Assembly: GCA_964634945.1 (NCBI GenBank)
Contig: CAZWMG010000001.1
Coordinates: forward strand, 116,825 to 180,824
Reading direction: 5' to 3'
From: an uncultured Planctomycetia bacterium
GTDB taxonomy: Bacteria; Omnitrophota; Gorgyraeia; JABMRG01
DNA length: 64,000 nt
Part shown: positions 18,336 through 64,000 of the stretch, one piece after another
How positions within the stretch are numbered: position 1 is the stretch's first letter
Layout: each line of letters starts with the position of its first letter
Made by a program: the position numbers and the translations under genes
Notes under the pieces: generated by a model
Databases searched by the model: none
Told to the model about the DNA's origin: nothing
Seen by the model: the letters and a program-made list of their open reading frames with translations, nothing else

Positions 18336-18360
18336 ATTCGTATCCTTGTTGTAAAGCTAC

Positions 18361-18690: not shown

Positions 18691-18750
18691 GTGAAACGCT
18701 CCTTTTTTATAAAACTTATTATAATACTATATATATATAATGTCAATTGC

Positions 18751-18790: not shown

Positions 18791-18811
18791 TACAACCTAT
18801 CTTCTGATAAA

Positions 18812-32059: not shown

Positions 32060-32487
32060 ATCCTTTTTAATATCTCCTGCTCCTTTTTTCGCATCTTAAG
32101 CGCAGACCTAGAAGACGTATCATCATAGCCCAATAGATGCAATATGCCATGTATAATATAAAGTGACAATTCAATAAAAAAAGTATTTCCGTAACGTCTG
32201 GCATTCTCAAATGCTTCAGAGGGGCAAATTAAGATGTCGCCTAGATAGCCCTTGTGTATATCGCTGGTCATGGAATCATCATAGCCTAAGGCTATAACAT
32301 CCGTTACGCGATCCTTACAAAAATACCTGCTGTTTGCTTTTTTAATTCTGTATCTTGTAACAAAACTTAAAGCTACCTGTGTCTCTTCGGGCTGCCCAAG
32401 AGCTTGAAGCGCCTTAAAAGAGATAAGCTCGATCTTTTTTTTATTAAGCTTAATCTTTTTTTGAGCGTCTGTTATTATTATTCTCAT
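32050..32487 (-). CDS. ybeY: endoribonuclease YbeY
   Basis: HGILHLLGYDD (H-x3-H-x5-H zinc motif). Confidence 0.8.
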   Translation of the reverse strand: MRIIITDAQKKIKLNKKKIELISFKALQALGQPEETQVALSFVTRYRIKKANSRYFCKDRVTDVIALGYDDSMTSDIHKGYLGDILICPSEAFENARRYGNTFFIELSLYIIHGILHLLGYDDTSSRSALKMRKKEQEILKRICG

Positions 32488-34732
32488 ATTTTTTAAGCTT
32501 ACTATCAGGATACTCTATGCGTGAATGATAGGTAGCCGTAAGAACCCTTACAAAACTTTCGGCGATTTTATCAATATCTCTAAGCGTAAGATTGCATTCA
32601 TCAAGCTGACGATCGATAAATTTATTATTAACAATTTTCCGCACTAACTCCTTGAAATGTTGTGGTGTTGGATTCTGTAAAACACGCGAAGCGGCCTCCG
32701 CGGAATCCGCCAACATGACTATTGCCGATTCTTTCGTCTGCGGTTTGGGGCCGGCATATCTAAATGCCTCCTTACTGATAGATTCATCCTGACGCCTCTT
32801 TTCGAGCGCCTGATGATAAAAATACGTTACAACGCTGGCGCCATGGTGTTGTTGTATTATATCTTTTATGGAATTGCCTAGTTTATATTTCTCCGCAAGC
32901 TCAACACCATCTTTGACATGGTTAGTTATGACAAGCGAACTCATTGACGGAGAAAGTCCTTTATGCATATCCTTAAGTTCCTTCTTATTCTCAGCAAAAT
33001 ATTCTCCTTTTTCAATCTTACCGATATCATGGTAGTATGAGCTTATGCGGCAAAGGAGTGAGTTCGCGCCAATAGCATTTGCGGCGGTTTCAGCAAGGTT
33101 TCCAACAATTATACTATGGTGGTATGTGCCAGGAGCCTTGGTTACCATATCCCTTAATAAGGGGTGATTCAAATCAGCGAGTTCAAGCAATTTTATATCC
33201 GTAGTAAGCTTAAATAGATACTCCAACACAGGAAGAAATATCATTACAATCGCCGCTGAGACAATACCATTGGCGATACCCCACAGGCCTTGCTTTAGGA
33301 ATATATTAGGTTCAAAATTGGATATTATTCCTATGGCTGAGATAGCTATAAAATTAATTACCCCAACATAGAGCCCTGATCTTATAATATGGCTGCGTGA
33401 CCTCGCGTTAAAAATAGTACAGATTGCGAAGATGCCTCCAATCATGGAGACAAAGAATATGCTGAATTTTATACCAGCTATCAAGGTTACTATTACAGCG
33501 GCAACAACAACCACAATCGCCGCTACCCTACCATTTACAAGCAGCGTAATAAGCATAGAGACTACAGCAACAGGTATAAAATAACTAGGCAGTGGGGAAG
33601 AGACTATGAGACGCGCGGATAAGGCTACAAAGACTATCAACAAGCTCATCAATAACAAAAGCTTATCTTGTGAAAATATGCAACGCTCAAATTTTTTCAG
33701 ATAAATATATAGTATAAATATCAATAAACACATAAGAGTAACCATGCCCCAAAATTGGGAGAAGTTATCACTTGCGGCAGCCATAGTACTGACTACATCA
33801 ATCTGGGCAATGTGCTCTTTAGCGATCCTCTGTCCTCTTCTCACAACTATCTCGCCCTTCGACCTAGATTCTGTAATATAGATAGGCGTAACCGCGGAAA
33901 TGGCATCGCGTTTCGCGGAATTTGTCTCATCCTGGTTAAGCGCAAGGTTAGGTTTTACCCAATTCGAAATAAGCTTGTACAGGACATTTACCTGCTTTTT
34001 CCCTTGCATGCCATCGCTTAAGAGCAAAGGCTCTATCTTATCAAGTATGGACCCATCGGTACTTATGCTAGCTACCTTCTCATCACTCTTTTTTCTAGTA
34101 AGCCTATTGTATATTATAATATGTTCGCTTCCCTCTACGCGTAGAGCCTTTTTCATCTCTTGCGAAATAATAGGGTACGAATATATTGTCTGCAATGTCT
34201 CTAAGGCATATGACTGAAGTTTAGGCGTCTTACCTGACCCTAATAATATATCTGTCTCGTCCTTGTCAAGGTTTTCCTTAATCTTATTAAGCAACTGCTC
34301 CAGTTCGGCTGTATCATGTTCTTCTTCCGTAACAGATACCAGTTTTCTATAAGAGTCTAGGAGTATAAAAAATTCCTTTGCCTCTGACTCAGCGGATTTA
34401 AGCACCTTGTCATCAATGCTATATACAGGAATTATCTTAGCTTCAGCCGCGTCCTGATATGCCTTTGTCTTCTCTTCATCGACTCCTGATTGGTACTGAA
34501 AATCAAACGGGGCATATATATCCGCTACCGCGATATCGCCCTCATTAAGAGCTCTCCTGATAGGAAGTTTTGCGGAATACATAATACATATAATGATAAA
34601 GACGATAAAAACAGCGATCAGGACTCTTTTTATGGCCTTTGAAACCATCTGCTGTTTTTGCTGTTGTCCTGTATTTAATGAATTACCTAAATTTCTGATC
34701 CTAAATAATGCTTTTTTTATAAGTGGGGTCAT
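32450..34732 (-). CDS. pgpH: 7TM-HD (HDIG) membrane phosphohydrolase, PgpH/YqfF-like
   Basis: N-terminal extracellular region, 7 TM helices, C-terminal HD domain (HHSIIVGN...YHDIGK). Conserved pgpH-ybeY-dgkA order. Confidence 0.75.
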   Translation of the reverse strand: MTPLIKKALFRIRNLGNSLNTGQQQKQQMVSKAIKRVLIAVFIVFIIICIMYSAKLPIRRALNEGDIAVADIYAPFDFQYQSGVDEEKTKAYQDAAEAKIIPVYSIDDKVLKSAESEAKEFFILLDSYRKLVSVTEEEHDTAELEQLLNKIKENLDKDETDILLGSGKTPKLQSYALETLQTIYSYPIISQEMKKALRVEGSEHIIIYNRLTRKKSDEKVASISTDGSILDKIEPLLLSDGMQGKKQVNVLYKLISNWVKPNLALNQDETNSAKRDAISAVTPIYITESRSKGEIVVRRGQRIAKEHIAQIDVVSTMAAASDNFSQFWGMVTLMCLLIFILYIYLKKFERCIFSQDKLLLLMSLLIVFVALSARLIVSSPLPSYFIPVAVVSMLITLLVNGRVAAIVVVVAAVIVTLIAGIKFSIFFVSMIGGIFAICTIFNARSRSHIIRSGLYVGVINFIAISAIGIISNFEPNIFLKQGLWGIANGIVSAAIVMIFLPVLEYLFKLTTDIKLLELADLNHPLLRDMVTKAPGTYHHSIIVGNLAETAANAIGANSLLCRISSYYHDIGKIEKGEYFAENKKELKDMHKGLSPSMSSLVITNHVKDGVELAEKYKLGNSIKDIIQQHHGASVVTYFYHQALEKRRQDESISKEAFRYAGPKPQTKESAIVMLADSAEAASRVLQNPTPQHFKELVRKIVNNKFIDRQLDECNLTLRDIDKIAESFVRVLTATYHSRIEYPDSKLKKYENNNNRRSKKD

Positions 34733-46682: not shown

Positions 46683-48347
<1,665 letters not shown>

Positions 48348-48382: not shown

Positions 48383-48673
48383 TTATTTCTTAAGTACTGC
48401 CAGTATATCCTCTTCCTTAACTATAAGCATATCTTCGCCTTCTACCCTGATTTCAGTCCCGGAATACTTGCCATATAGAACTTTATCGCCAACCTTTACT
48501 TCCATTGCTACTGTCTTGCCATTCTCTACCTTACCTTTGCCAACTGCCACTATCTTGCCTTCCTGTGGCTTTTCTTTTGCGCTGTCCGGTACAATGATGC
48601 CACCCGCTGTCTTCTCTTCAGCTTCTAACGGCTGTAAGAGCACTCTGTCCCCTAATGGTTGTACTTTAGCCAT
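48383..48673 (-). CDS. groS: co-chaperonin GroES
   Basis: 96 aa. [10 protein letters not shown]...IIVPD...GKV mobile-loop and roof motifs. Confidence 0.9.
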
Positions 48674-48697: not shown

Positions 48698-48724
48698 AGG
48701 CTTTTGTTAGCACTCTTATCTAAT
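48698..48724. promoter_or_regulatory. CIRCE operator (HrcA binding site) in the groES leader
   Basis: Perfect consensus TTAGCACTC-N9-GAGTGCTAA. About 25 nt upstream of the groES start codon. Confidence 0.9.
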
Positions 48725-48788
48725 GAGTGCTAATTAGTTTTTGCTATCATTTCCCTTTGAAAAATGGGATTTTGTTTGAAGAAAGTGT

Positions 48789-48816
48789 ATATTACCAGAT
48801 TTTCTGAACTTGTCAA
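48789..48816 (-). promoter_or_regulatory. sigma-70-type promoter for groESL
   Basis: Minus-strand TTGACA (plus coordinates 48811-48816), 16-17 nt spacer, TAATAT (48789-48794). CIRCE lies just downstream in the leader. Confidence 0.5.
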
Positions 48817-48950
48817 GTATTATTTTTGCATAATTTACGCGAAAGGAATGAGAGTAAATTATATGCAAAAATTATATCCTGAGGATGCAAAGCATCCGAA
48901 GGATCTCAAGCTTGCATAATTTACGCGAATGAGATAAGAGAAAATTATAT

Positions 48951-49850
48951 TTATTGGGAAGGGGCCTGTTTTGTTATAACACCTTGGTGGCGTGAAATTG
49001 ACGGCGTAAAACCTGTCACCTTTATAGAGGTAAGTATTCCAAGAGCAATAAATGATATCCAGAAGAGTGAAGATAACAAGTAAAATAACGTGCTTTGTAA
49101 AATAGGCTTTTTGTCTTTCATGCCTTTAAGTGAATTGAATAGGCCTATTAACGCTAGAGCAAAAATAAATAGCATAACAATATTTGAAAGCTTTATTACA
49201 CCGAAAACCGAAAAGCTATCAGCTCTTAAAAATTCATTGAAGAATCGCATAAAAGAGTACAATGCTATCACACAGAAAAAAGTAGCGCCTTTGTACTGCC
49301 TTAACTTCTTGTATTGGATAAACATTGTAATAAAAATAGCAAGCGCGGCGATCGCCGCGTAAACTTGCGTAGGATGTCTGAATCCCGGCCTTGAATAAAC
49401 ATTAACTGCCCATGGCAGATTACATCGAAGCCCGAAACAACACCCATTTAATAGGCATCCGATACGTCCTATTCCACGACTGAGCATGAGAAAAGGCGCT
49501 ATGTAATCCGCGTTCTTTAAAAAAGATGTCATTGTTATAGCTGAAAAGATCCATAGGCTTATGAATCCTAATAATGGTACTCCTAAATACGCCATACCAG
49601 ACCTACTTATAATGGTATCTAGGGGGGCTGTGGGATAGTTTATATAGTTTACCAATACGCCAAATGCCCTTGCTCCAAAAACACCAAATATCGCAAACAA
49701 CGCTCCGACAATAAATAGCTGCAAGCGCGAGAGAGCAAAATCTTTAGGCCTAAAATAGACAGCGCATAATATAGATATTATATAACTAAGATTCAAACAG
49801 AGCGTCCACGCGTGTATATTAGAACTGCCTATAACAATATATGGATACAT
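48951..49850 (-). CDS. lgt: prolipoprotein diacylglyceryl transferase
   Basis: Lgt signature HPTQVYAAI and GRIGCLLNGCCFG. Polytopic membrane protein. Confidence 0.8.
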   Translation of the reverse strand: MYPYIVIGSSNIHAWTLCLNLSYIISILCAVYFRPKDFALSRLQLFIVGALFAIFGVFGARAFGVLVNYINYPTAPLDTIISRSGMAYLGVPLLGFISLWIFSAITMTSFLKNADYIAPFLMLSRGIGRIGCLLNGCCFGLRCNLPWAVNVYSRPGFRHPTQVYAAIAALAIFITMFIQYKKLRQYKGATFFCVIALYSFMRFFNEFLRADSFSVFGVIKLSNIVMLFIFALALIGLFNSLKGMKDKKPILQSTLFYLLSSLFWISFIALGILTSIKVTGFTPSISRHQGVITKQAPSQ

Positions 49851-49855
49851 ATTTC

Positions 49856-50434
49856 CTATTTACCCGCTTCATCAGACAAAGCACGGGCAGATAGAAACTG
49901 CTTTTTTACTCTCACCCGTGTAAAGAAAAATATTACCAGTAAAAGATAAAGTAAAGAGCTTATTCTTACAATTAGAGCTGTCTGATACAACTTCTTATAT
50001 ACTAATGCGGCATACTCTTCTTCTGTAAGATCATTATCCAGCCTCAACTGTTCAGGAATAGCTGTATAGCCGGCCCATATCCTCTCTTGTGAATCAGGTG
50101 CTGTCCTCATATATTCTATAGATTTATTACTTAACGGTATAGAGATTAGAGCCATATAGAGCAATTGTATAACTGTAAGGAGCAAGACCAGTCTTCTTGC
50201 CCAATCTCTTAGCCTGAACATGTTTACCGAACCTATTATAAATGAAATATTGCTAATTATTGAATAGACTATAATAAGAATAAGGGCCGCTCGCGGCAAG
50301 ATCTGAGAAAAACCAGCCTGTATGCTACCTGTTCCTAAAAGCCTAAATATACTTATGATTAGTATGGATAACGCAAAAAATACAACGCCTGCGGACCTTC
50401 CTTTGCGTCTAATCTTTAATTCTTCGTTATTCAT
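49856..50434 (-). CDS. hypothetical 4-TM membrane protein
   Basis: Four hydrophobic helices and no known motifs. 6 nt upstream of lgt. Confidence 0.35.
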   Translation of the reverse strand: MNNEELKIRRKGRSAGVVFFALSILIISIFRLLGTGSIQAGFSQILPRAALILIIVYSIISNISFIIGSVNMFRLRDWARRLVLLLTVIQLLYMALISIPLSNKSIEYMRTAPDSQERIWAGYTAIPEQLRLDNDLTEEEYAALVYKKLYQTALIVRISSLLYLLLVIFFFTRVRVKKQFLSARALSDEAGK

Positions 50435-50558
50435 ATATCCCCCATTTATTGGCGTTTCTATAATAAGTAATTAATTATAAATATACAGTATAATATAGAT
50501 TATATCAAGCGGTATTTCTATTGATATAAGAAAAAATAAGCCGCAGACAAAAGAACAA

Positions 50559-50948
50559 TTAATAGGCCTTATCCGCTATCTTATCGATAAGATCCCTGTC
50601 TCTTTTTTTTATCTTTTCGAACTGCGTTGCTATAAAACATATCTTCGGATAGGAATCTTTTTGTGGTTTCTTATTGCGGATTACCCTGCCGATACATCTT
50701 ATCGTATGCGCGGAAAAAGGAAATATAATTTTAAAATTAACCCGCATACCTGTTGTTAAATCATCATCGTAAGTAAATAACATGCCGCCGGCGCTGAGGT
50801 TACGCACTGTTACTATATCCCACTTACTAAAACATCTCCTGATGAAAACAAAGCTTACAGTCCTAAACCATGACATAAAACTTCTCTCTATCCTCCTATG
50901 TTTTCTCTTCTCCTCCATGACATACCCCCCCTTCGGTTGAATATCCAT
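50559..50948 (-). CDS. PilZ domain c-di-GMP receptor
   Basis: RRIER (RxxxR) and NLSAGG (NxSxxG). 129 aa. Start codon 21 nt downstream of the giant-gene stop. Confidence 0.6.
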   Translation of the reverse strand: MDIQPKGGYVMEEKRKHRRIERSFMSWFRTVSFVFIRRCFSKWDIVTVRNLSAGGMLFTYDDDLTTGMRVNFKIIFPFSAHTIRCIGRVIRNKKPQKDSYPKICFIATQFEKIKKRDRDLIDKIADKAY

Positions 50949-50968
50949 AGCAATACTTCGTCATAGTA

Positions 50969-53900
50969 TTACGCGTTCTGTGCAACGAGATCATTTATTC
51001 TCTTAATCTCATCATTGTCTATAGGCTTAATCCTTATTGTCCCTGAGCCTGAATTCCCAAACATTGATTCCCAGTTTTCATTCGATATACCAATTTCAAT
51101 ACCTCTCTCGTTCATAAACGCGGCAAGTTGTTTAAATGGCACGCGGAATATTGCCAATACTACCTGTGATGCTGTCACTATATTATTTGCCGTACCAGCA
51201 GATTGTTCAACCTGTACGAATCTTGTCTGATCAGCGGTAATGGATGCAGGCTTATTGTAACGATAGACAATAGTAGCAGTACTTGCTTTCTTGAGGCCGG
51301 TTGTTACTGTTATGCCGTGCTCCTTAAGTTTACTTACTGCCTGGGCACTATTATCGCCATATACTGATATAGATACAGTCTCCTTTACATTATTAGGCAT
51401 CTTATTTATTATAACACCTAATGTCTCAGCAAGCATATCTGTAACTGTATCTGATTCCAGTACAAGAGCCTGTCCTGCTGTTATAGGCAGCTTGTAACCT
51501 TGTGTAGTAACTGTGTTAACAATATTTACCGCTGTTTGCGCTGTATCAAGGCCAAATTCCGAAACGTCAATAATGATGCCGGCAGACGCGCTCTTTGAAT
51601 CCGACACAGGCTCTGAACCGGTCTGTGTATATGATAGGCCCTTTTCAATGAGGCCTGAAGAAGACTGTTTCAATATATCTGGCGATGGCTTCTCTTCCGG
51701 ACTAATCTTAGGAGCATCGGTCGTTGTTGTTTGAGATACCGGTTCCTTACTACCTGATGTAGCCGCTGGCTGCTGTGCGTCTTCTCCCTGCTCTTTGCCT
51801 GCAGCAACATCTAATGCCTCGATATATGCCTGCATTATGAAATTATTCATATTAATTAGCTGAACGGATAAAGGCACATCTCTAACAAACTGCTTTTGTT
51901 TTAGCACCCCTTCTTTTTTGAGCCTTAATACCTCTCTCTGCGCTACAGGCTCAGCTTTTGCTCTTGCCGCTGCCTGCTGTGTTGATTGCGCCTTAGCATC
52001 CTCTAATCCATCTTCTACTGGTAAATCCTTTAATGCTGCTTCATAAGCCTTGCTAACCTTTTCTGCGGCTTTTGATAACTTAATGAACCTATTGAAAGCC
52101 CCATCAACTGCTTTTGGATTACCTTGGCTTGTTTTGTCTAATAATCCTGCGGCTACAAGCTGTGGCACAATAGCCTGTCTTGCTTTAATAGATGCCTTAT
52201 GCTCTTTCATATCGTAGCTTGGTTTTATGTTAAGAATATCTGAGAGCAGAGATGTAATCGCTGTTCTCATTTGCTCAGGACTATACTTATACTCACCTTT
52301 TACATCTTTTATACCATTTGCGATCTTCTCCTGACTATTTTTAAGGGTCTCTACAGCTTCCTTATATTCATCAGAAGCATTACCTGAGACTGCCTGATCT
52401 TCAAACTGCTCTATGGACTGCTCAACAACCTCCTCAATTATCTCATCAAAGGTCTTTCTGGTTCTAATGCCTTCTTCATTCACGTTAGTAAATGTATTTA
52501 ATCTGTATGCGTAATGGCCTTTGGCACCGCCCATCGAGTTAACGGTCTTTTCTCTTAAATAATCTACAGTCTCAAGGAACTCAGGGCTATCGTATAATAT
52601 CTTTGACATAAGCCCATCTACAATTATCTTATTCTTTATTTCATCCGCTAAATCTTTAGACAGAGAAGTAGTGAGCCATGATATCTCATCATTAAAATGT
52701 GAAAGTTCATGCAGCATCTGCTCCAGTATTAGCCAGCCGGATGCAATCTTACCGCTGGTTGCATCATGGTCTATCGCTGCTTTTGCGAATTTTATAAAGT
52801 CTCTTGATAGAGCTATTGTTGGCCGCGCTACTATGTTGCCTTCTTCGCTAAATATTACTACGCGCTCTGCCTGAGCCTTTTCAGCTACTGAACCGCCTGC
52901 TGTCTTCTTAACCATTCTAACCACAACACCATCCGGAGAGCCATTCTTAGCTGCATCCATTAGCACATCAAATAACTGTGTAAGCTCTTCACCGTTGCCT
53001 TTTTTTGATAAGTAATCTTTTATACTATCCATAGAACTGAAGGCAACATTTAATGCGTTAATAAGCTCCTTTATATCTCTTCTTGCTGAATTAGAAGATA
53101 TTGTCAGCTTATCACCTGCCCACTTTACTAGCACAGAATCAGTTGCTGTCTGCGCAAAGTCCCTGTAGACCTTTTGGACCTCTTCATAAAATCCTGATTT
53201 CATATCCAGGTTAGCGAGATGTTTTTTCATAAACTCATCTATATAAGCATCCTGGTTGTTAACCTTGTCCAATTTTATATCATGATACAACTCTGTTAGA
53301 TTAGCCTCAATATCCGCTTCATTAGCGCTTGAACTTCTTGCCTTTAAGAAACTTGTAATCCTAGCGTTTATATCTTTAACATTCAGATTGTGTATACTAA
53401 TATATGCTTTAGCATAAGAGGTTGCCGCTTCATTAAGTTCCTGATTCTTCTTCAGTAGGGGTTCCACAATCAATTCTAGTTGTTTATTGAGCTTTAATAT
53501 TTTAGCCTTTATTACCATGGATCTCTTCTTATCAACATCATCATCTAAATCAAGGGCCTGCAACTCTTCTTCTAGTGACTTCTTCTCTCTCTTAATGCGG
53601 TATATCTTTGACGCAAACAACAAGCGCTCTCTTTTTTTCTCAAGTTTTGTCTTTGCTCTTGCGTACTTAAGCGTTGCATTTGCCATGTCAAATAATTGGT
53701 CATTATCCGCGAAGGCATAGCTATCTTCTGTAAGCATCCTTGTATTATCAATATCCTGGGCAAATTCAATAGATATCGCTGCCTTTATCGCCAGATGAGT
53801 CATAACATCATCTCCCGCTATATCGCTTACCATTATGTCTATCTTCTCATCGGAGGGCTTTGCGACCTTAAACATTATTTGTTTAGCTCTAAATCTGTTC

Positions 53901-56900
53901 TTGAGCATACGTAGAGTCTTTTTAAGCTCCTTCTTCTTAGACTCTTTCTTCTGCTCCGCTATCCTATACTGCGTGATTGCTATGCGTTCCTCTAAATCAT
54001 CTATAGCGACCTTTCTTCTTAAATATTTAAGGAACTTTTCATTGCTCTTTATATCGCCTTTGTTATACGCAATTACCAATGCCTTTGCGAATTCTCGCCT
54101 TGCTGCTAAAGGTTCTTCTGTATTTAACAATGCCTTCTTAAGGTTTGTTTGAGTAAATTCTAAGCCCGGGAACTTTTTCTTCAAAGCATTATACTCTTTA
54201 GCAATCTCATATAAGCCATTAGCGTCAAAATCTTTTAAGGAGTTGCTTGTTCCTATTAGGCCTATTACGGATACTGCAATAGAGGCCTCAGAATCATCCT
54301 TTATGCTGCGGTCGTTATCCTTAAGCATCTTAACTATCTGCTGAAACTCTTCCGGCGGAAGCGCCATCTTAAGAGATATAATTTTTATAGCTACCTCAAG
54401 CACCATCATGCCTCTTACTGTAAGATTGTTATCATTATCCACCATATCGTTATCTCTCATAAATCTTACTAATTGCCCAACTGCAGCATTAGCATCTACG
54501 CTAGCATTAACAGTCCCTTCACCTTTCGCGCTCTCTATATCATCCTGAGCATCTTTTATAGCTGTTTTAAGAGCGATCTCAACCTCATCTACTGTAAGTG
54601 TTCTTTCCTCAACATCTTCATCCTGTGCTTCCAGAGTTCTTGCTGTACGTGCCTGGGCAGCTGTCAGGGTCTGCCTAAACGCTCCGGCAACATCGCCTGA
54701 GAACGATGGCAGTACATAAGGGATAAATCTTCTTGCGGCATTATAAAGCTCTGAATACGTTTCAGCATCCTTAAATGTACTCTCATATGCCTGCCCGGAC
54801 GACTTTCTCAGTATCACACCCTCGTATTCCGATAACAATGGCTTTAGTTCTCTTTCGACAATCCTTATTGATTCTGCTGTCTTAACAGATTCCATATCCT
54901 CCATAAGAGACTTTATAAATTCGACCCCAATGCTTGCGTTAGTATTGAATATCTCAGTTATCAGGGCCTCTGCATCCATAGGCTTATCCAATAGGTCGAG
55001 TGCCGCACTGCGCTGATCAGACTGCTTATCAAGTAGCTTAAGCAGATGCTTCTCAAGGACCTTTCCTTCTGATGTTTGCGCAGTCTCCGGGTTTTCGCTT
55101 CCGTATTTTCTAAGTAGATTTTTAGCTGCCTCAACAAGATAACCTTGGGCAACATCTGTTATAATGTAGGCATTTGATTTTGACATTTGTATAGCGCCTA
55201 CAACCTTAAGCATAAGCTGGGTAGCGGACTGAAAATCATTCTCAATAAACCCATCTATATCATCCTTAGAAGACGCGAACTTATCCAGAAGAGTCTTTGT
55301 ATTCTTAAATTCATCATTCTGCCTGTACTGTTCCGGTGATATCATATTGCTTAACTGAGTAAGGTTGCCCCTTAAGTACTCAAGGCGCTTTTTAAGAGAT
55401 TCTTTATTTACATAGATTACTCTTGTCGCTATATCTGATTCTGAACGTTGCACACGATAGAGCCCCTGTAGTAACAGATCTTCCGCAAGCTCATCAGCAA
55501 CTATATGTATATCAACATCACCGTTATAGTTTAATCCTATCAGGCCACCTTCATTTATGAATACAGCGTGTCCTCTTTGAGCCTGTTTTGCTATCTCATT
55601 TACATCGCCATCCTCATTAGATGCTACTATGTTATTCTCATCTTTCACAATGTATTTAACAATATCTTTATCCAGCCTATTCTGATCAGCGCCTAGGGCT
55701 TCTATCAGATCTTTTATGTTCTCTTCCTTTCGTTTCATGTTTGGATCATTCTTATCAAGTTTTTCTATCACAGAATTCTGCTCATCTATAATGCGTTGCA
55801 GCTTTTTATATATAGCATCTCTTAATCTCTTTCTTAATATGTCATCCCCCTTAATACGTCTTTCAAGCTCTTCCTGAGTACGCTTTCTCATATCTTCGTT
55901 AGCTGTATATATCGCGACACCACCTTGAGTGCGAAGCGACTCTATAGCACCGCTTACAATCTGGGCAATCAATACTTTTTCATCAGCATATTTACAAAGC
56001 ATATGGCTAGGATGTATCCTACCAAAAGTCTTATTATCTATCTCTAACTCTCTATATTCGCTCATTTTTTCATTTGCACTAGCTATCGCGCCTGGAAGCG
56101 CGGAATCATCAACACCGACAAGGTCAATCATCTTATAAACTATATCATTTCCATCACTATCTTTCGTAAATACCGGTATCTCAGAGCGCTCGAAATCAAT
56201 CTCAATTCCTGTTACCGCAGGAAGCATAGCAATTACCTCAAAGAACGTTCCTGAGCCGCCGGCAACATGCGCTCTTGAATTCATACCAAATATCTCGCGC
56301 AAAGTTGACTGCATGTTTGTCGCGTTGTAGGTAAGGCCTGTTACTAAGATCTCTTCATTATCTGTTATCTGCCTGTGTAGTTCTGCTATAGCACTATCGT
56401 CATCTGTATCATTTATGTATTTATTATGCTGTAATGCTATTGCTATAACATAACCCATATCCTGAAACATAGATGAATACTTTGCCCTGCCTTGCCCAAC
56501 AGGTACAATCTTCTTATCAGCTGTTACAAGGTAATCCTGCCCAATACGATGGTTGAGAGCCCTTAACACGCTCTCAACCTCAGACAGTTTAATGCCTTCC
56601 TTGGTAAGCTCGTTCTGAAGTTCTCTTGACGCATAAACAGCATCAAACTCTCTGTCATAGCATACCGCCATACCTGTATTCCTGTAGTTGCTTTTAAATA
56701 ACTCGACATCTCCTTTTAAATCTCTTATATTTAACTTCTTACCTTTCTTTGTCTCTAACACGCCTCCTTTAAATATCTTAAATATTTTCTCGATAGCCTC
56801 TAATTTCTCAGCTGTAACCTCTTTTTCAGCAAGACCACCTTCAATAAATGTATCTCGAACTTTCAGCACGCTATCAAATTCATCAATCCTTAAGATGTTT

Positions 56901-59900
56901 GTCTTAGCAACAGCGTTAAACAACTCATCATTTTCCGCATGCGCTATAGTATTCTGTAAATGGCCTCTTGCTTCACGGCTTATTATCACTACCTGATTAG
57001 GATCATTAAACGCCTCTGTTACCTTCTTATACGCGGCCCTCTTTCCTGCTTTTCCTTCTGCGGATGCATTTTTGAAATCATCTATCAGCTTGTCGCCGCT
57101 TACCATCTTAAGGCCAAAACCATGCAACAAGGTATATTGTGAATGCTCTAAGCCTTTATTTCCATCATCCTTATCAGATAGTGGATTTAAATACTTATCA
57201 ACTGCCTGCGGGCTTTCTAATATCACCATGCCAGCGAGATCGTTGCCTTTTATCAGACTCTCTATACACATCTCTGCTGCAAAAGCATATGTTTTACCGC
57301 CTGCCATTGATAAAGCACCGAATTTTCCTTCAAATAGACTCTTGATAAACTTCTGTTGCTTTGCACGTAATCCGATCTCCTTGTTGCTTAACGCTGACTC
57401 TCTGGCAGCAAGTAAATTAGCGATAGCAAGTCCAAATGCCAGCGCCTGAACATCATCAGTCGCGTGTTCTGTTTCATCTAGTTCAAGACAAGCTTCTTCA
57501 ACCTCATTTCTATTGCCTTTTATATCTGTCTTTGTTATTGTCACGCTTAGGCCTGTTGCGATATCTTTTACGCGATCAACAAAAGCCTTATACGCATCTC
57601 CTGAGCCCTCTGTAAGATTTTCGTATTCAACCTGTTTTTCATTCAGCTCAGACCTTCTCTCATTGATCTGATTCTGCAAAGTTGCAGCTTCTTTCTCTTT
57701 CGCCTTTTGCAGTGTCTTATTGCCATCGTTCCTTGCGCTTATTATCTCTTTTTGCAATTCATCAAAACTGGCAGTTAATTCGCTTATACCCTTTGCCATG
57801 TCTGCCATCTGATCTTTGAACAATACTATCTTCACTCTTGACTCACTATGTTTGCTGTCTGCTACATCAAGCAATTCCATTGCGCCGGAGGCTTCTTTCT
57901 GCACTGCATTCACAATAGCCTCTCCTGCTTTTTCCACAAAATCGTTCTGCTCCGGTGTTAAGGTTCTTGTTAGCTCAAGTTTTCTCAGCATCTGTTTTAT
58001 GAACTTGTTGTTAAATTGCTGATAGAATCTTCTCTTTTCAATTATCGTTTTCTGCTCATCTTCATTATTGGTTAGGCCTGCTACTATATAATCAAAGTCA
58101 TCCTGTCCGGATTCTGTATGTATCATTGCCTCGTAAAGGGCCTGACGTAGTATGTTCTTAACATAGGTATCTAATCTGGCAAAATCGAGGAATGAATCGA
58201 GCGCTGAATTTATATTAATATCATTTGCAGGCGAGGCTGCCTGAACAGCTGCTGCATTATCTATTATAGACTTCAGTATGGCTGATGTAGCTCTTGGATT
58301 ATTTTTGATAACCTGCACATATTCTTCAAATGACTCAAGCTCTAGCTCCTTCTTGGTTTCGCCATTAGCTTTAAAGCTATCTACCAATAGCCTGCTAGCT
58401 CTAGCAACGATCTCTTGTGTCTCTTCTTCAATTTGCGTAACTGTTTCCAGAGCCTGTTTTGAAGCTATCTCTGAGTCAACGTCTTTTAATGTACCGCTTA
58501 ATAACGCTTGCTCCAACATGTCTATACGATCAAGCGCATCAGAATCAACAAGCGATTTAAGATCTTTCTTATTCAATACGATCTCTTCAGTGAGCTGTTT
58601 TAACTCAACCAGAGACGCTAACCCGCCAAATTCAATCTCTGCTGTGTCTAAATTGATCTTTGATATCTTTTCTACCGCAATATCCGCAGCTTGCACTATA
58701 TTTTTGACAGATTCAGCTAAAGATGCCCTGGCTGCGTTATGCTTAATATCTTTTGCTGCCTTTGCTACGTTACCTATGACACCGGCTGCTGAAGTCGCGA
58801 AACGCGCATTGTACTGTGGAGATAGCTCAACATCTTGGCCGCTATCCTCTACAGAGGTAGTCATGTTTAAAGTGGTATTCGCGAATATGCTTCTTAAGCC
58901 TGTGCGCGTATTATCGATATCTACTTTTAGTGTCTTTATGTCTGATGCTGATGCATCGAGCTTCTGCTTCATTTGAGGCAAGGCCTGCTCTAATGTTGAT
59001 AATGCTAGCTCCATCTTTGCAGCAGCGTCAACCAGTTCTATTTGCTGCGCCTTAGTTGCTGTCTGTGAGTCTATAGCTTTTGCCTGAGCCGCAACCTGTT
59101 TAACAGCAACCTTTACCATGCCCACTGTTCTTGCCTGCGTAAGCTCGCCTGCAAAGGTCTCCTGAGCAGCATAATCCTCATATACACCTGCTATGCTTTT
59201 CTTTGATGCCTTATTAATAGATTCACACAGCTTTGTAATATTATTAGCCACCCTGGTAGCGCTATCTGTAAACTGCTTAACTGAAACACCAACTGATTTA
59301 CCATCAAGCACATCTGAAATCTCAACTACAAACTCCTGCAAACCTTCAGGCATCCAACTTAAAAACAATCTTGCCAGTATGACCTCTTTTATTGCCTCTT
59401 CATATATGCCGCCTACTATTCTACTTGAAAAGCCTCCCAATTTTCCCAACATAGTTGCTTCTGGTGCCTCAGCCAAATAAGCAAGCTTACCCTGTATAAA
59501 GCTTGATACAGCGCTAAATGATTTCGCGATAATCCTGCCTATGGTCTGAGGTAACCTAACTAGTGTTAGAAAAGTAATGGCATTAAGCGCGCCGTTAAGA
59601 AAGCTTCCGCCACTTATCGCACTTTTAAGAGTGGAATCTGCTGTGATACTAAACTTCATTGCCCAAGATGAACTTGTCCTTGCTGCAACATCCTTAAATG
59701 GGCCTGATACTCTATTTGATGTAAAGTTCGCTATCCTATGACCCAGTGCAACTAGGGCAGGGGAAAGAGCAGTAAATACCGCTGTAAAGAGTATTCTTTG
59801 CGGATTCAGGTTTTCAGCTAAGGCGTTAAGCACCGAACCTTTACCCATCTGTCGCATCGTTCCATAGATGGTTTTTAAGGCACCTGGCCTCATATTGGCT

Positions 59901-62900
59901 ACAAAATCATCTGTTATGCCAAACGTGTTAAGCCCAGCGCTTGCCATTGAACCTGCTAAATGTAATGATATGCTCATGCCATATGTCAGGTTCCAGACAG
60001 TAGCTATACCATGTTTGTACATATGTTTTGCCCATTTAGTTGAAAGGCTTGCGACTACTTTTGATGCCGCAATCAGCCTCTGAGAGGCTGCAGCCATTAT
60101 GCCTTCACCGGCAGCTGCCTTTGTTACTGCAGAAGCTACCTTTGTTGATGCTGTAGTTATCTTTGAGCCAACATAGGTAAGTGGTTTTGCCGCTATATTG
60201 AGGATTTTTGCAACAGCCTCAATAGACTTAATGCTACCAATTGTACGAGCTATAGAGGTAGTAGCTTTTAGCGCTATGTTTAAAACAGATTTAATGCCTC
60301 TTAATATGATCCCTCCCGCAGCAAGAAGCGCTATATCAATTAACATCTCTGCTCCTGCCAATGTATACTTGTAAGTGCTATCATTTTGTATCTTATACAT
60401 ATCATCTATGCTCGTTACAGTAAAATCTACATCAAAACTTTCTCCGTTAAGCAACGAAGCAACTGAGGCAGCAACATAGCCAATAGCAGAACCAAGATGA
60501 TATACTGCCCAGGAAACAGCAGCGCCCATCCTATATGCGAATAAGGCGCCTTCGCTAGCTGAATCCAATACGGATTGCTGGCCTGTACTAATATCGATAG
60601 ATGTCATCTGATATATAGTTTCGTTATTACCTGTAATATGCTGATACCAGTACTTTGTCTCTATGCTTAGACGTAATATGGATGTATCGGCATCATAACT
60701 GATATTGGCATTATCCTGGCCACTTGTAATAATAAAGCTATCATCAGATGTTCTTGTTGCTGTAACAAGCTCCTGATTGCCCTGCATATCAGTTAAAGTC
60801 TGCGAAGCTGTTATAAGCACGCCATCTCTTATATATGTGTAGCTCTTTAGCATTCCTGACGAGGTTATAACGCCGGTTGACGATGAAACAGAATTTACAG
60901 TTACGTTAATAATATCATTAGGTATAGCAATATCTGCCTGCATAGCAACGTCACCGGTTGTTTCGCCTGATGATGAATATGTTGTAACCGCAATATTCTC
61001 ATCTATGTACATACCAAGAACATCTGCTTGTTCCAGTAACTGCAACGCATTCATACCACTTAATAGTTCTGTGCTGACCTTATCTATTTGATCCTGTCTA
61101 TCTTGTCCTGTTAGCATGCAATCATAAGTAGCATCAACATATACTTCCGCAATTGTCCTTTGAAGAGCAGGGACTATTGTAGCGCTATCTTTCTCGTTGA
61201 GCTCTCCTATTGTCAAACCTAGCGCACTTAAAGTCACGTTAGGTGTGCTTAGATTTATTGATAGTCTATACTCTTTGCCAGTATATGTAAAATCTGTTAT
61301 CTTAATTGTGTGCCCACCACTAAGAACTGATAGTGCCATTAGGCTATCAGGGCTATCTGATATGAAGTTTATAGTTACGCTCAAACCATCCTTATCAGAG
61401 ACAATACCCGCACCTTTTTCTCTTGCTGTCTGGAATTGAATATTATATGATACTTCTGAGTTCTGTATATTATTCAGATACTTGCCAAAACCATCTTGCA
61501 TATTTTGCTTCTTTGCATCGATGCGTGCCTTACAATCCGCTATCTGATCTTTATCATAAAAGTCGCTATCTATCAGGGTCACCATCTGCAATAAGCCTTT
61601 GATCTCATCTGTTAAGGCATCGACTTCCGCTTCTAAATTCTCTAAAAATATTTGATTCATACATGCGGCGATTTTATAGGCTGACCAGAGACCTTTATCC
61701 TCCGCATTAACTTTATTATTAGCTAATGATTCGCTTACAAATTCATAAGGATTGTCAGGATCATCCGTAAACCAGCTACCGATTCCTTTTTGAGATTCAT
61801 ACTCTTCAAAAAGTTTTGTAGAAGCATTAACCAGGCTCTGCATATAAACGCTAAGCTTTGCAAGCTGGGCCGGATTCATATCAGCCAAACCTTGGCCATT
61901 TTCAATATCAATAAGCCCCTGTTCTGTAAGCGTATTAAGAAAAGCGTTTATGTCGCTTTCATCAAGCTTGCCCTGCGCAATACCACCTGCAAGAAGAGCG
62001 AATAAAGCGCCTATTGTTCCTGATATCTTCTGATCTGCGGGATTGCAAAGTATAGGCATCACAACAAAGCTCTGCTCATATTTCTCTGAATCCTTGTCTG
62101 TGGTATTTTTATATTTATCTATAGTCGCTAAAATCTCCACCTTTTCTTGTGCATAAGCGGCTCTCTGGGCATCTGATAGCTCATCTGAATCTGCTCCCAT
62201 AAGCCAGTCCTCCTTAACCATTAAATCAACTTCTATCTGCGAGAGCCTATCCTCAAGTTTTTCTATTAGCACACTATATGGTATGATTTTAGAAGAATCC
62301 ACTGCCTGAACAGCTATCAGATCGTTATCGCCATCTTTACCATACATGATAGTCGTTGAAAGCTCGATAAGCATCGTTATCAGCTTCTTAGCAGATGCTG
62401 ATATATTGATGTCATTGAGATACTCTTGAAGCTTCTGTTTTGACACAAACGTAATGATAGTTTTTGTAGCTTTATTGTAGCCGAGAACAAAATCTGATAG
62501 TGACATGCTTTCATTATGCCACTGCTGTAATGTTATTTTAGCCCCTTGATAAGATATTTCAGAGGTAACATCCAGGTTATCTTTTACAATAAATATCTTA
62601 TTTGTATTTTCATTATATCCGGTGCCTAATCCTATTGAGATATCTCCATCTTTCATCTCTATCTGCGTAACACCCGCTGATAATACGTAACCACCTGATT
62701 TCAAATCTTCGGCAAGTACAAATCTTCCTTGCTTATTAAGCTCTATTGTGAGGCTAGATAAATTATCTGCAAAATTAACCTCTTTTCCGTCAAATATAAC
62801 CTTAAGATTGTCTTTTGAATTCTTATCAAGCTTCGTCGTAAACAATATTCTCTTGCCTGTTGTTAGTGTTACATTAAATTCTCTGCCTGCAATCTTTGCG

Positions 62901-64000
62901 GTAAAGTTCATATTTTCTGCTATATTCAGCTTCTCTAATGGTGTAAAGTTTCCGTTATTATCCAGCACGCCTCGTTCAATATGTTTTTCGCTGTCAGGGC
63001 CGTTTATCTTTGACCTGACTACCAAGCTGTCACCACCCTCTAGTGTTGACTTGACATTAATCATCTCAAGGAATACATGCATTTTTGAATCATCACTAGT
63101 AATAATATTAATCGCTCCATCAATATCCGCGTCCCAGGATACATGTTGCACCATGCCTGAGTCATTCTTAAAAGTAAGTGAGCCAGACCTAAACTCTACG
63201 CCGCCTGCTATGCTCATCTTCATGCCCTGCCCGAATAAGCTAATCTGGCCAGTTGAAATATCTAGCTTAAACTTAAGTATTGTTGCCTCGCCTGACTCCT
63301 TATCTATATACGCACCGATACGCAGGCTTCCATCAGATAGCTTATTTATAACATGGAATTGTGAGTTTATATCTTTTGCGTTAAGATCCTTACTGCCACC
63401 TTCTACCTTGGGAACATATGTAAACTCCGCTTCTTTACCAAACTGGGCGTATATACCGGTATCATCTATTACAAATTTACCTTCTACGCCATTCAATTTT
63501 AGAGTACACTCGGCTATCTTTAAAATATCCGCTTGGTCTATTGTCTGGAACGTACCATTTTCAGTTATTGTTATATGAACTGTTATATCCTGTCCGTTCA
63601 CATCTAATTCTAATGAGTCATCAGAACCAAGGAATTGTGAAATTATCTTCTGGCTTGTAAGTTTTGTATCGTAGCTAATCTGGCCAAGTCCGGTAGGCTT
63701 GAAGCCGTCCTTTGTCCAGCTTACACTTGTGGTTTTAGTGGATTTTGAATTGTCAAAGGTGTATTTATCATATGTTACAACACAGCCTGCGGCGATACTC
63801 ATGTTCATGCCCTGGCCAAACAGAGTTATTACTCCACCGGATAATATATCAAGCTTGAACTTTAACGTTCCGCTAGCTGAGGCGCCTATTAGGGTTACAC
63901 CGTCTTTTGTGCTTGATATTGCCTTGAATTCAGAGCTTATAACTTTCGCATTATCCGGAGTGCCGCCTTTTGTCTCTTTATACCATAGCTTCGCTTCCGG
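50969..64000 (-). CDS. giant multidomain protein, >4,343 aa, N-terminus beyond window. N-terminal beta-rich repeats, hydrophobic Ala/Ser-rich segment, coiled coils, embedded SecA-like DEAD motor, distinct C-terminal domain
   Basis: Track ORF 50969..63808 (4279 aa). I extended the frame by hand to position 64000 without a stop (64 further codons, PEAKLWYKETKGG...), so the 5' end is off-window. Internal motifs are described in findings. Confidence 0.8.
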   Translation of the reverse strand, partial: PEAKLWYKETKGGTPDNAKVISSEFKAISSTKDGVTLIGASASGTLKFKLDILSGGVITLFGQGMNMSIAAGCVVTYDKYTFDNSKSTKTTSVSWTKDGFKPTGLGQISYDTKLTSQKIISQFLGSDDSLELDVNGQDITVHITITENGTFQTIDQADILKIAECTLKLNGVEGKFVIDDTGIYAQFGKEAEFTYVPKVEGGSKDLNAKDINSQFHVINKLSDGSLRIGAYIDKESGEATILKFKLDISTGQISLFGQGMKMSIAGGVEFRSGSLTFKNDSGMVQHVSWDADIDGAINIITSDDSKMHVFLEMINVKSTLEGGDSLVVRSKINGPDSEKHIERGVLDNNGNFTPLEKLNIAENMNFTAKIAGREFNVTLTTGKRILFTTKLDKNSKDNLKVIFDGKEVNFADNLSSLTIELNKQGRFVLAEDLKSGGYVLSAGVTQIEMKDGDISIGLGTGYNENTNKIFIVKDNLDVTSEISYQGAKITLQQWHNESMSLSDFVLGYNKATKTIITFVSKQKLQEYLNDINISASAKKLITMLIELSTTIMYGKDGDNDLIAVQAVDSSKIIPYSVLIEKLEDRLSQIEVDLMVKEDWLMGADSDELSDAQRAAYAQEKVEILATIDKYKNTTDKDSEKYEQSFVVMPILCNPADQKISGTIGALFALLAGGIAQGKLDESDINAFLNTLTEQGLIDIENGQGLADMNPAQLAKLSVYMQSLVNASTKLFEEYESQKGIGSWFTDDPDNPYEFVSESLANNKVNAEDKGLWSAYKIAACMNQIFLENLEAEVDALTDEIKGLLQMVTLIDSDFYDKDQIADCKARIDAKKQNMQDGFGKYLNNIQNSEVSYNIQFQTAREKGAGIVSDKDGLSVTINFISDSPDSLMALSVLSGGHTIKITDFTYTGKEYRLSINLSTPNVTLSALGLTIGELNEKDSATIVPALQRTIAEVYVDATYDCMLTGQDRQDQIDKVSTELLSGMNALQLLEQADVLGMYIDENIAVTTYSSSGETTGDVAMQADIAIPNDIINVTVNSVSSSTGVITSSGMLKSYTYIRDGVLITASQTLTDMQGNQELVTATRTSDDSFIITSGQDNANISYDADTSILRLSIETKYWYQHITGNNETIYQMTSIDISTGQQSVLDSASEGALFAYRMGAAVSWAVYHLGSAIGYVAASVASLLNGESFDVDFTVTSIDDMYKIQNDSTYKYTLAGAEMLIDIALLAAGGIILRGIKSVLNIALKATTSIARTIGSIKSIEAVAKILNIAAKPLTYVGSKITTASTKVASAVTKAAAGEGIMAAASQRLIAASKVVASLSTKWAKHMYKHGIATVWNLTYGMSISLHLAGSMASAGLNTFGITDDFVANMRPGALKTIYGTMRQMGKGSVLNALAENLNPQRILFTAVFTALSPALVALGHRIANFTSNRVSGPFKDVAARTSSSWAMKFSITADSTLKSAISGGSFLNGALNAITFLTLVRLPQTIGRIIAKSFSAVSSFIQGKLAYLAEAPEATMLGKLGGFSSRIVGGIYEEAIKEVILARLFLSWMPEGLQEFVVEISDVLDGKSVGVSVKQFTDSATRVANNITKLCESINKASKKSIAGVYEDYAAQETFAGELTQARTVGMVKVAVKQVAAQAKAIDSQTATKAQQIELVDAAAKMELALSTLEQALPQMKQKLDASASDIKTLKVDIDNTRTGLRSIFANTTLNMTTSVEDSGQDVELSPQYNARFATSAAGVIGNVAKAAKDIKHNAARASLAESVKNIVQAADIAVEKISKINLDTAEIEFGGLASLVELKQLTEEIVLNKKDLKSLVDSDALDRIDMLEQALLSGTLKDVDSEIASKQALETVTQIEEETQEIVARASRLLVDSFKANGETKKELELESFEEYVQVIKNNPRATSAILKSIIDNAAAVQAASPANDININSALDSFLDFARLDTYVKNILRQALYEAMIHTESGQDDFDYIVAGLTNNEDEQKTIIEKRRFYQQFNNKFIKQMLRKLELTRTLTPEQNDFVEKAGEAIVNAVQKEASGAMELLDVADSKHSESRVKIVLFKDQMADMAKGISELTASFDELQKEIISARNDGNKTLQKAKEKEAATLQNQINERRSELNEKQVEYENLTEGSGDAYKAFVDRVKDIATGLSVTITKTDIKGNRNEVEEACLELDETEHATDDVQALAFGLAIANLLAARESALSNKEIGLRAKQQKFIKSLFEGKFGALSMAGGKTYAFAAEMCIESLIKGNDLAGMVILESPQAVDKYLNPLSDKDDGNKGLEHSQYTLLHGFGLKMVSGDKLIDDFKNASAEGKAGKRAAYKKVTEAFNDPNQVVIISREARGHLQNTIAHAENDELFNAVAKTNILRIDEFDSVLKVRDTFIEGGLAEKEVTAEKLEAIEKIFKIFKGGVLETKKGKKLNIRDLKGDVELFKSNYRNTGMAVCYDREFDAVYASRELQNELTKEGIKLSEVESVLRALNHRIGQDYLVTADKKIVPVGQGRAKYSSMFQDMGYVIAIALQHNKYINDTDDDSAIAELHRQITDNEEILVTGLTYNATNMQSTLREIFGMNSRAHVAGGSGTFFEVIAMLPAVTGIEIDFERSEIPVFTKDSDGNDIVYKMIDLVGVDDSALPGAIASANEKMSEYRELEIDNKTFGRIHPSHMLCKYADEKVLIAQIVSGAIESLRTQGGVAIYTANEDMRKRTQEELERRIKGDDILRKRLRDAIYKKLQRIIDEQNSVIEKLDKNDPNMKRKEENIKDLIEALGADQNRLDKDIVKYIVKDENNIVASNEDGDVNEIAKQAQRGHAVFINEGGLIGLNYNGDVDIHIVADELAEDLLLQGLYRVQRSESDIATRVIYVNKESLKKRLEYLRGNLTQLSNMISPEQYRQNDEFKNTKTLLDKFASSKDDIDGFIENDFQSATQLMLKVVGAIQMSKSNAYIITDVAQGYLVEAAKNLLRKYGSENPETAQTSEGKVLEKHLLKLLDKQSDQRSAALDLLDKPMDAEALITEIFNTNASIGVEFIKSLMEDMESVKTAESIRIVERELKPLLSEYEGVILRKSSGQAYESTFKDAETYSELYNAARRFIPYVLPSFSGDVAGAFRQTLTAAQARTARTLEAQDEDVEERTLTVDEVEIALKTAIKDAQDDIESAKGEGTVNASVDANAAVGQLVRFMRDNDMVDNDNNLTVRGMMVLEVAIKIISLKMALPPEEFQQIVKMLKDNDRSIKDDSEASIAVSVIGLIGTSNSLKDFDANGLYEIAKEYNALKKKFPGLEFTQTNLKKALLNTEEPLAARREFAKALVIAYNKGDIKSNEKFLKYLRRKVAIDDLEERIAITQYRIAEQKKESKKKELKKTLRMLKNRFRAKQIMFKVAKPSDEKIDIMVSDIAGDDVMTHLAIKAAISIEFAQDIDNTRMLTEDSYAFADNDQLFDMANATLKYARAKTKLEKKRERLLFASKIYRIKREKKSLEEELQALDLDDDVDKKRSMVIKAKILKLNKQLELIVEPLLKKNQELNEAATSYAKAYISIHNLNVKDINARITSFLKARSSSANEADIEANLTELYHDIKLDKVNNQDAYIDEFMKKHLANLDMKSGFYEEVQKVYRDFAQTATDSVLVKWAGDKLTISSNSARRDIKELINALNVAFSSMDSIKDYLSKKGNGEELTQLFDVLMDAAKNGSPDGVVVRMVKKTAGGSVAEKAQAERVVIFSEEGNIVARPTIALSRDFIKFAKAAIDHDATSGKIASGWLILEQMLHELSHFNDEISWLTTSLSKDLADEIKNKIIVDGLMSKILYDSPEFLETVDYLREKTVNSMGGAKGHYAYRLNTFTNVNEEGIRTRKTFDEIIEEVVEQSIEQFEDQAVSGNASDEYKEAVETLKNSQEKIANGIKDVKGEYKYSPEQMRTAITSLLSDILNIKPSYDMKEHKASIKARQAIVPQLVAAGLLDKTSQGNPKAVDGAFNRFIKLSKAAEKVSKAYEAALKDLPVEDGLEDAKAQSTQQAAARAKAEPVAQREVLRLKKEGVLKQKQFVRDVPLSVQLINMNNFIMQAYIEALDVAAGKEQGEDAQQPAATSGSKEPVSQTTTTDAPKISPEEKPSPDILKQSSSGLIEKGLSYTQTGSEPVSDSKSASAGIIIDVSEFGLDTAQTAVNIVNTVTTQGYKLPITAGQALVLESDTVTDMLAETLGVIINKMPNNVKETVSISVYGDNSAQAVSKLKEHGITVTTGLKKASTATIVYRYNKPASITADQTRFVQVEQSAGTANNIVTASQVVLAIFRVPFKQLAAFMNERGIEIGISNENWESMFGNSGSGTIRIKPIDNDEIKRINDLVAQNA

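Follow-up and report, generated by a model that had tools for sequence, protein, structure and literature searches.

The giant genes of Omnitrophota are presumed to serve in attaching to other cells or in attacking them. According to a preprint (West-Roberts et al. 2023, 10.1101/2023.11.21.568195), their products have transmembrane regions and SecA_DEAD domains of divergent sequence, and in most cases at least one small pilZ homolog comes directly after the giant gene; lgt, the gene for prolipoprotein diacylglyceryl transferase, is not mentioned in that preprint. The 64,000-nucleotide (nt) stretch of DNA analyzed here (the window) carries the 3' part of a giant gene followed by pilZ, a gene for a four-helix membrane protein, and lgt, the last three forming a block at positions 48951-50968 that lies, with its flanks, entirely on the minus strand. 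A first-pass annotation made from the sequence had treated these four genes as one probable operon that would link the giant protein to cyclic di-GMP (c-di-GMP) signaling and possibly to lipoprotein processing. The reading that we favor, with moderate confidence, is that the locus comprises two neighboring transcription units, the giant gene with pilZ and the membrane-protein gene with lgt, and not one four-gene operon. The pairing of giant genes with pilZ is already in the literature, and the finding mostly confirms and refines that published observation. A link to lgt would have been the new element and does not hold up.

The organism is placed in Omnitrophota, close to Candidatus Orphnella, because of the names of the membrane-protein homologs and a taxonomy lookup; the genus Orphnella was described from Ace Lake, Antarctica (PMC8542988). 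The locus resembles the described Omnitrophota giant genes (10.1101/2023.11.21.568195) in phylum, in its very long open reading frame (ORF), in the placing of a diverged SecA-like ATPase after transmembrane helices, in the small pilZ directly 3' of it, and in the very fast divergence of the giant protein. It differs in that the likeness to SecA is seen at the level of the fold only, with no Pfam SecA_DEAD match, and in that dockerin, glycosyl hydrolase, C39 peptidase, and GGDEF domains were not detected in the 4,343 amino acids (aa) of the giant protein that lie in the window. Further 3', the window has the membrane-protein gene, lgt, and groESL, not the solute-binding proteins, transporters, or glycosyl hydrolases of the described loci.

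All four ORFs are present on the minus strand in the ORF list, which together with Pfam and hydropathy bears out the order first proposed, namely, pilZ, a 124-nt gap, the four-helix protein, and lgt on one strand. The giant gene (3' part, 50969..64000, with its stop codon at 50969-50971) has no in-frame stop up to position 64000 and thus spans at least 4,343 codons; the first-pass annotation had correctly described it as cut by the window edge, with the N terminus outside. Identical public contigs carry a truncated giant product of 4,246 aa, and orthologous giant ORFs have minimum lengths of 6,171 and 7,268 aa. The giant family includes genes much longer than the part in the window, as three further Omnitrophota loci with the same SecA-like core (L021, L022, and L024) have ORFs in which 6,529, 5,010, and 7,135 codons, respectively, run without a stop through all of the sequence retrieved. 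Downstream of pilZ, the membrane-protein gene and lgt are followed by groES, groEL, genes for a TPR/peptidase_MA protein and an IMPDH-family protein, and dnaE. The arrangement is not due to chance, as it recurs in independent metagenome contigs of this organism and of related ones.

Related loci (labeled L009, L013, L017, etc.) were gathered by exact lookups of the membrane-protein homologs and of the Lgt homologs, with further loci coming from a genome scan with the SecA-like domain and a metagenome scan with the PilZ alignment. A six-sequence SecA-like alignment yielded four Omnitrophota loci, one of which reached the 3' end of the gene, and a 12-sequence version was too diverse. The conserved C-terminal domain of the giant protein was used as a hidden Markov model marker of the giant gene in these loci. 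The giant gene and pilZ were found adjacent without exception in at least nine diverged lineages, with gaps of 29 to 290 nt, and these include L035 and L036, in which PilZ is only 45 to 47% identical to that of the window. Synteny in relatives had been named as a check on the operon, and for the giant-pilZ part of it the pairing is conserved in every lineage recovered.

The first-pass annotation had pilZ start at 50948, giving a 129-aa protein that begins 21 nt after the giant stop. This start does not stand up to comparison: the upstream ATG at 50948 is missing from the orthologous locus L013, all PilZ orthologs and the gene calls of identical public contigs begin at MEEKRK, equivalent to 50918, and a GGGGGGG ribosome-binding site precedes the latter position. 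The true start is probably 50918, giving a stand-alone PilZ protein of 119 aa (50559..50918) and therefore a gap after the giant stop of 50 nt, not 21. A 50-nt gap is too short for a terminator plus a promoter, and pilZ has its own strong ribosome-binding site. The giant gene and this dedicated pilZ would be cotranscribed as the first of the two units.

The PilZ assignment is supported by Pfam PilZ (PF07238) at 36.9 bits, against a cutoff of 22.5 (E = 4.7e-9; residues 14 to 122 of the 129-aa form), and by both c-di-GMP-binding motifs, RRIER (RxxxR) and NLSAGG ([D/N]xSxxG), which were confirmed to be intact as first described. In the orthologs from L009, L015, L017, L018, L044, and L045 the two motifs are likewise kept; the sole exception among the PilZ orthologs is L023, with DLGAGG. 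Like stand-alone PilZ receptors in general (PF07238), the protein is built of one ~110-aa PilZ domain, in which the motifs stand at their usual spacing. Unlike them, it belongs to a subfamily confined to the 3' side of giant genes and has no solved relative detectable by sequence. PilZ orthologs at least 42% identical to it, where upstream sequence was available, all lie directly 3' of a giant ORF with the conserved C-terminal domain. As relatives at 34 to 37% identity do not adjoin giant genes, the giant-linked PilZ is a distinct, lineage-specific subfamily found only behind giant genes.

Two negative results count against a role for this protein as a c-di-GMP sensor: a profile search of the PilZ alignment against the PDB detected no solved relative by sequence, and neither the portion of the giant protein that the window covers nor those window ORFs, a subset of the total, that were scanned yielded a GGDEF or EAL domain. 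They fit a reading in which the PilZ fold has lost c-di-GMP sensing and persists as a chaperone for the giant protein or a factor in its assembly, as do the modest Pfam score (36.9 bits) and the DLGAGG of L023, which replaces D-x-S-x-x-G. Both motifs are nevertheless intact in the window and in all other orthologs despite identities of 42 to 73%, and we regard the loss of sensing as quite unlikely. That the giant gene would be tied to c-di-GMP signaling, as initially suggested, is thus upheld insofar as pilZ is its fixed companion with motifs kept outside L023; the accompanying suggestion of a tie to lipoprotein processing is not.

Searches of the giant protein itself, with residues numbered here from window position 64000, against Pfam, NCBIfam, and PDB sequences gave no match. 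Pfam scans of it in 700-aa pieces, and of two full-length relatives, returned noise only, and a homolog search with its last 1,200 aa gave nothing at an E value of 1e-3 or below, in a database that may largely lack truncated giant products. Kyte-Doolittle analysis marked hydrophobic segments at aa 1166 to 1184, 1214 to 1232, and 1403 to 1421, which define a transmembrane region (59738..60505, minus strand; aa ~1166 to 1421) upstream of a diverged SecA-like ATPase region (56120..57460, minus strand). The latter contains a GGKT Walker A motif, a DEFD Walker B motif, and TxMQSxLREIF...AGGSGT. An exhaustive search with the central 1,200 aa recovered 16 clusters among 1.84 billion representatives, most of them proteins of 3,700 to 7,300 aa; the shared part covers aa ~2185 to 2616, and in this search the SecA-like region was the sole part conserved in distant relatives.

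The likeness of this region to SecA emerged from its predicted structure. A profile of it gave weak DEAD-box matches in the PDB (E = 0.003). The AlphaFold model (pLDDT, 73.8) was compared with the PDB by Foldseek, and the 11 best matches were all SecA or SecA2, with E values of 3e-6 to 9e-4, spanning 435 to 470 aligned columns at ~11 to 16% identity and TM-scores of 0.32 to 0.37. The order of the Walker A GKT, the DE(F/I/V)D box, and TxxQxxxRxxF...AGxSGT is the same as in nucleotide-binding domain 1 of SecA. The domain differs from SecA and SecA2 in sitting inside a protein that exceeds 4,300 aa and in having no Pfam SecA match; the SecA scaffold, wing, and C-terminal domains were not detected in the giant protein. 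From the model and the hydropathy profile, the giant protein is predicted to be membrane embedded and to carry a diverged SecA-like ATPase.

Two pieces of the giant gene are constant among relatives. One is a segment with the pattern HExxH...E...D (52391..52963, minus strand; HELSH at 52697..52711), in which 11 lineages, with only 22 to 60% identity elsewhere, all share the H, E, and H, an E 19 residues on, and the D. No Pfam or PDB sequence match was found for this segment, a PDB profile search gave nothing meaningful, and going by its motif it is possibly a zincin-like metalloprotease module. The other is the C-terminal domain (50972..51571, minus strand), comprising the last 170 to 200 aa and ending in LVAQNA, which is 35 to 54% identical to its relatives and is the sole piece that BLAST aligns in 10 of the 10 relatives compared.

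The body between and before these pieces behaves differently. Against L045, the giant protein is collinear at 39% identity over ~3,000 aa. Against L025 and L026, which by PilZ are the closest to the window (80 to 81% identical), only the last 250 to 280 aa and one piece of ~180 aa align, and the giant bodies of L017, L025, and L026 are alike at 47 to 53%. No SecA-like domain was detected within the last ~3,100 aa of the proteins from L017, L018, L025, and L026. The relationships of the bodies are thus not those of the flanking genes, which suggests that the giant gene is a mosaic whose body has undergone replacement or recombination. That pilZ stays beside the giant gene in all of the lineages recovered, while the body varies greatly even among the closest relatives, strengthens the case for c-di-GMP control of giant proteins and makes the constant C-terminal part the place to look for contact with PilZ. 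Repeats of two kinds were also observed. Residues 1 to 1045 of the closest long relative (P0018; 7,016 aa) consist of ~33-aa repeats, xYDxxDRVxxQTI..., reminiscent of YD/RHS; the Pfam RHS_repeat match to them reached only E = 0.006, below the cutoff. A different repeat, ...LFGQGM(N/K)MSIA(A/G)G..., was seen twice by eye at 63400..64000 of the window.

Docking on motors and ATPases is known from other PilZ adaptors, and PilZ-type proteins partner pilus ATPases, as in the PilZ-FimX-PilB complex of Xanthomonas. In the model that we consider rather probable, the 119-aa PilZ would bind c-di-GMP by way of RxxxR and NxSxxG, both of which are intact. In the bound form it would be an adaptor on the giant protein, or on the secretion machinery serving that protein, and would switch its deployment, export, or ATPase activity. 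A narrower variant keeps the coexpression of pilZ with the giant gene and makes the target not the giant protein but the type II/type IV-pilus-like secretion ATPase that usually precedes giant genes in Omnitrophota. The known partnerships between PilZ proteins and pilus ATPases are in its favor, and so is the conserved GspD/E/F-like locus reported upstream of giant genes phylum-wide (10.1101/2023.11.21.568195). The window ends inside the giant gene, short of the region upstream of it, and pilZ is joined not to a secretion gene but to the giant 3' end, beside the invariant C-terminal domain; on balance the variant strikes us as unlikely.

Whether the transcription unit that begins with the giant gene extends beyond pilZ turns on the AT-rich spacer of 124 nt between pilZ and the membrane-protein gene (50435..50558). 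The best promoter-like site of a scan, matching 10 of 12 positions, lies in this spacer at 50508..50480 (feature 50480..50508, minus strand); it is a sigma-70-type element, TTGATA-17-TATATT, with TG directly before the -10 hexamer. The pattern CTTGAyA-N15-TG-TATATT is also present in the equivalent spacers of L017, L018, L044, and L045, and TTGAAx-17-TATAAT is present in those of L034 and L009; the remainder of the spacers does not align between lineages. A promoter or terminator between the genes had been named at the outset as evidence that would speak against a single operon. The former was found, as a promoter-like element that is conserved in five diverged lineages, and weakens the single-operon reading by its position; no convincing instance of the latter was found in the spacer of the window. 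In L044, terminator-like hairpins with a T-run were read by eye just past the pilZ stop. A comparison with Rfam turned up neither riboswitches nor RNA elements of other kinds near the locus and matched the window only once, at a tRNA (22425..22497).

Rearrangements in relatives divide the locus at the same place. In relatives, one to three genes, among them toxin-antitoxin or defense genes, are inserted exactly at the pilZ-to-membrane-gene spacer: L009, L013, and L025 have a DUF6036 nucleotidyltransferase gene and a 52-aa gene at this junction, and some also have HATPase/DUF4325. Overall, the insertions of DUF6036, HATPase/DUF4325, and AbiE genes fall either at this spacer or after lgt. The two pairs can also be found apart. 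In L035 the giant gene and pilZ are followed by an HTH-cupin regulator, an uncharacterized gene, acetate kinase, and then groESL, and in L036 by AbiEi/AbiEii and DUF6036 and then groESL; neither the membrane-protein gene nor lgt occurs at this position in these two lineages, which are equally distant. Conversely, lgt lies directly behind a methyltransferase gene in L046/L047, with no membrane-protein gene or pilZ called beside it. The four-gene synteny that the first-pass annotation had offered as a check therefore fails to hold as a unit, being split by insertions, missing its second half behind pilZ in L035 and L036, and represented by lgt without pilZ in L046/L047.

As a side observation, the stretch from pilZ to groES (equivalent to window positions 48951..50558; seen in L009, L012, L013, L025, L035, and L036) is an insertion hot spot in relatives. 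The insertions include DUF6036 with the 52-aa gene, HATPase/DUF4325 (STAS-like), AbiEi/AbiEii, an IS110 transposase, and the HTH-cupin gene with acetate kinase.

Several observations count against a division into two units. A scan and a fold of the 124-nt spacer in the window gave no convincing terminator, and read-through from pilZ into the membrane-protein gene and lgt is therefore possible. Each occurrence of the promoter pattern had a chance of less than ~1% in shuffles, a figure that is tempered by the pattern being post hoc, derived from the same sequences on which it was counted, and by the relatedness of those sequences. In L044, the giant C terminus, pilZ, the membrane-protein gene, and lgt are kept together though EF-G and ruvCAB, not groESL, follow them, and the survival of the block next to a new 3' flank fits a functional block too. 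Plain adjacency by itself says little, as all of the lineages are close relatives, with GroEL 91 to 97% and the IMPDH-family protein 94 to 98% identical to those of the window; the rearrangements are the informative events.

The missing terminator and the L044 block also favor an alternative in which the four genes make up a single operon, with the membrane protein and Lgt working under c-di-GMP control on the giant protein or on partners of it, for instance to give them a lipid anchor. It further draws on the common strand and short gaps, on a membrane protein that no other clade has yielded and whose gene immediately precedes lgt, and on the occurrence of the four genes adjacent, or parted only by insertions, in the window and in L009, L013, L017, L018, L034 (where the contig ends inside the membrane-protein gene), L044, and L045. 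With GroEL at least 91% identical throughout, such synteny is expected without selection, and the conserved internal promoter-like element, the insertions exactly between pilZ and the membrane-protein gene, and the separate survival of the giant-pilZ pair (L035 and L036) and of lgt (L046/L047) all run counter to the single operon. The nature of Lgt and of the giant N termini, considered below, does so as well, and we judge the four-gene operon, which the first-pass annotation had proposed, to be improbable. A division into three units, giant-pilZ, membrane gene-lgt, and groESL, would be the most economical reading of the locus.

The membrane protein of the second unit (49856..50434, minus strand; 192 aa) has four hydrophobic segments and no Pfam or NCBIfam match. 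A chimeric query of PilZ and the membrane protein, which returned membrane-protein homologs only, hit just 17 clusters out of 5.8 billion. Identity is 51% or more in every case, several of the homologs bear the name Candidatus Orphnella occulta, and the protein appears to be restricted to this clade. Its AlphaFold model (pLDDT, 57) was too uncertain for a fold search. Two homologs from one metagenome-assembled genome were considered as paralogs, and this was dropped; they share the same groESL-IMPDH-dnaE context and are more likely co-binned strain variants. Wherever the contig reaches that far, the membrane-protein gene is directly upstream of lgt, and the gap between the two is 5 to 6 nt at every checked locus having both. 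In the window, lgt (48951..49850, minus strand) begins 5 nt past the membrane-protein stop, close to the 6 nt of the initial description.

Lgt is a universal housekeeping protein, and the window copy gave a full-length match to Pfam LGT (PF01790) at 126.4 bits, against a cutoff of 24.9 (E = 1.5e-36). It falls below the NCBIfam cutoffs, with 78.2 against 118.9 for TIGR00544 and 87 against 334 for NF000778. When it is aligned with the E. coli enzyme (5AZB), counterparts of R143, G154, Y235, R239, and E243 and of the RHPxQxY motif are present, and L, C, and C occupy the positions of H103, N146, and E151; the numbered residues are reportedly catalytic or essential in E. coli. The two proteins are thus alike in the full-length Pfam match and in being multihelix membrane proteins and differ in these three residues and in the sub-cutoff TIGR00544 score. 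The replacements raised the possibility of a pseudoenzyme, which was dropped: the active-site loop of the window protein (GRIGCLLNGCCFG) is of the Cys-variant type, and the G-R-x-G-C-x3-G-C-C-x-G loop is present in 117 of the 120 best Lgt homologs, including annotated Lgt of Omnitrophica, Planctomycetes relatives, and Chthonomonas. The Cys-loop form appears to be a common natural variant, and nothing marks the protein as a specialized enzyme.

An ordinary Lgt of this kind, several of whose homologs are annotated as such in other phyla, is one of the points against the four-gene operon. Another is that no canonical lipobox was seen by eye in giant-protein homologs beginning with Met. No support was found for the link between the giant protein and lipoprotein processing that the first-pass annotation had raised; the membrane-protein gene and lgt are best read as a housekeeping unit of their own. 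Under the two-unit model, this second unit would be expressed from its own conserved sigma-70-type promoter, would supply general lipoprotein lipidation, and would stand beside the first through recent common ancestry, not function. A more elaborate scheme joins the two units again: the constant giant 3' end (the HExxH...E module and the C-terminal domain of 170 to 200 aa) and PilZ would form a c-di-GMP-gated cassette, in which PilZ docks on that end and switches the self-processing or SecA-like self-export of whatever variable body, directed at prey or at a surface, is attached; lipidation of the released product would fall to the membrane protein and Lgt as a colocalized step. We offer this as a speculation and think it very improbable.

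On the other side of lgt, the spacer to groES (48707..48950, minus strand) combines a structured repeat region with a groES promoter and a CIRCE operator. It is strongly structured (fold z-score, -4.9) and contains a 17-nt direct repeat at 48826 and 48912. The promoter (48789..48816) is a near-consensus TTGACA-16-TAATAT with TG, and the operator (48707..48733) is a perfect CIRCE, TTAGCACTC-N9-GAGTGCTAA, with 0 expected by chance. These elements indicate that the spacer marks the start of the next, independent unit, in which groES (48383..48673, minus strand) and groEL (46683..48332, minus strand) would be expressed from their own promoter and CIRCE operator. Both are ORFs whose orthologs at related loci carry the Pfam labels Cpn10 and Cpn60, respectively. 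The short-read public contigs of this organism all break ~94 nt past lgt, inside this spacer.

Elsewhere in the window, a second, membrane-anchored PilZ protein of 160 aa had been noted at 17853..18335 (minus strand), and it is recovered here with a Pfam PilZ match at E = 6e-15 and one N-terminal hydrophobic helix. It is 26% identical to the giant-linked PilZ and unrelated to the giant-gene locus. Its neighbors are an Alginate_exp-type outer-membrane porin (18812..20176) and a sigma-70 region 4 protein (16973..17566), and the region as a whole (16973..20176, minus strand) may represent a separate, c-di-GMP-controlled polysaccharide-export context. Further along, at 32450..34732 (minus strand), lies a gene whose 760-aa product is a 7TM receptor carrying an HD hydrolase domain on the intracellular side (7TMR-HDED, 7TM-7TMR_HD, and HD). 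The gene for this membrane signaling phosphohydrolase is situated amid housekeeping genes, among them those for tRNA synthetases, PPDK, and an AddA-like helicase-nuclease.

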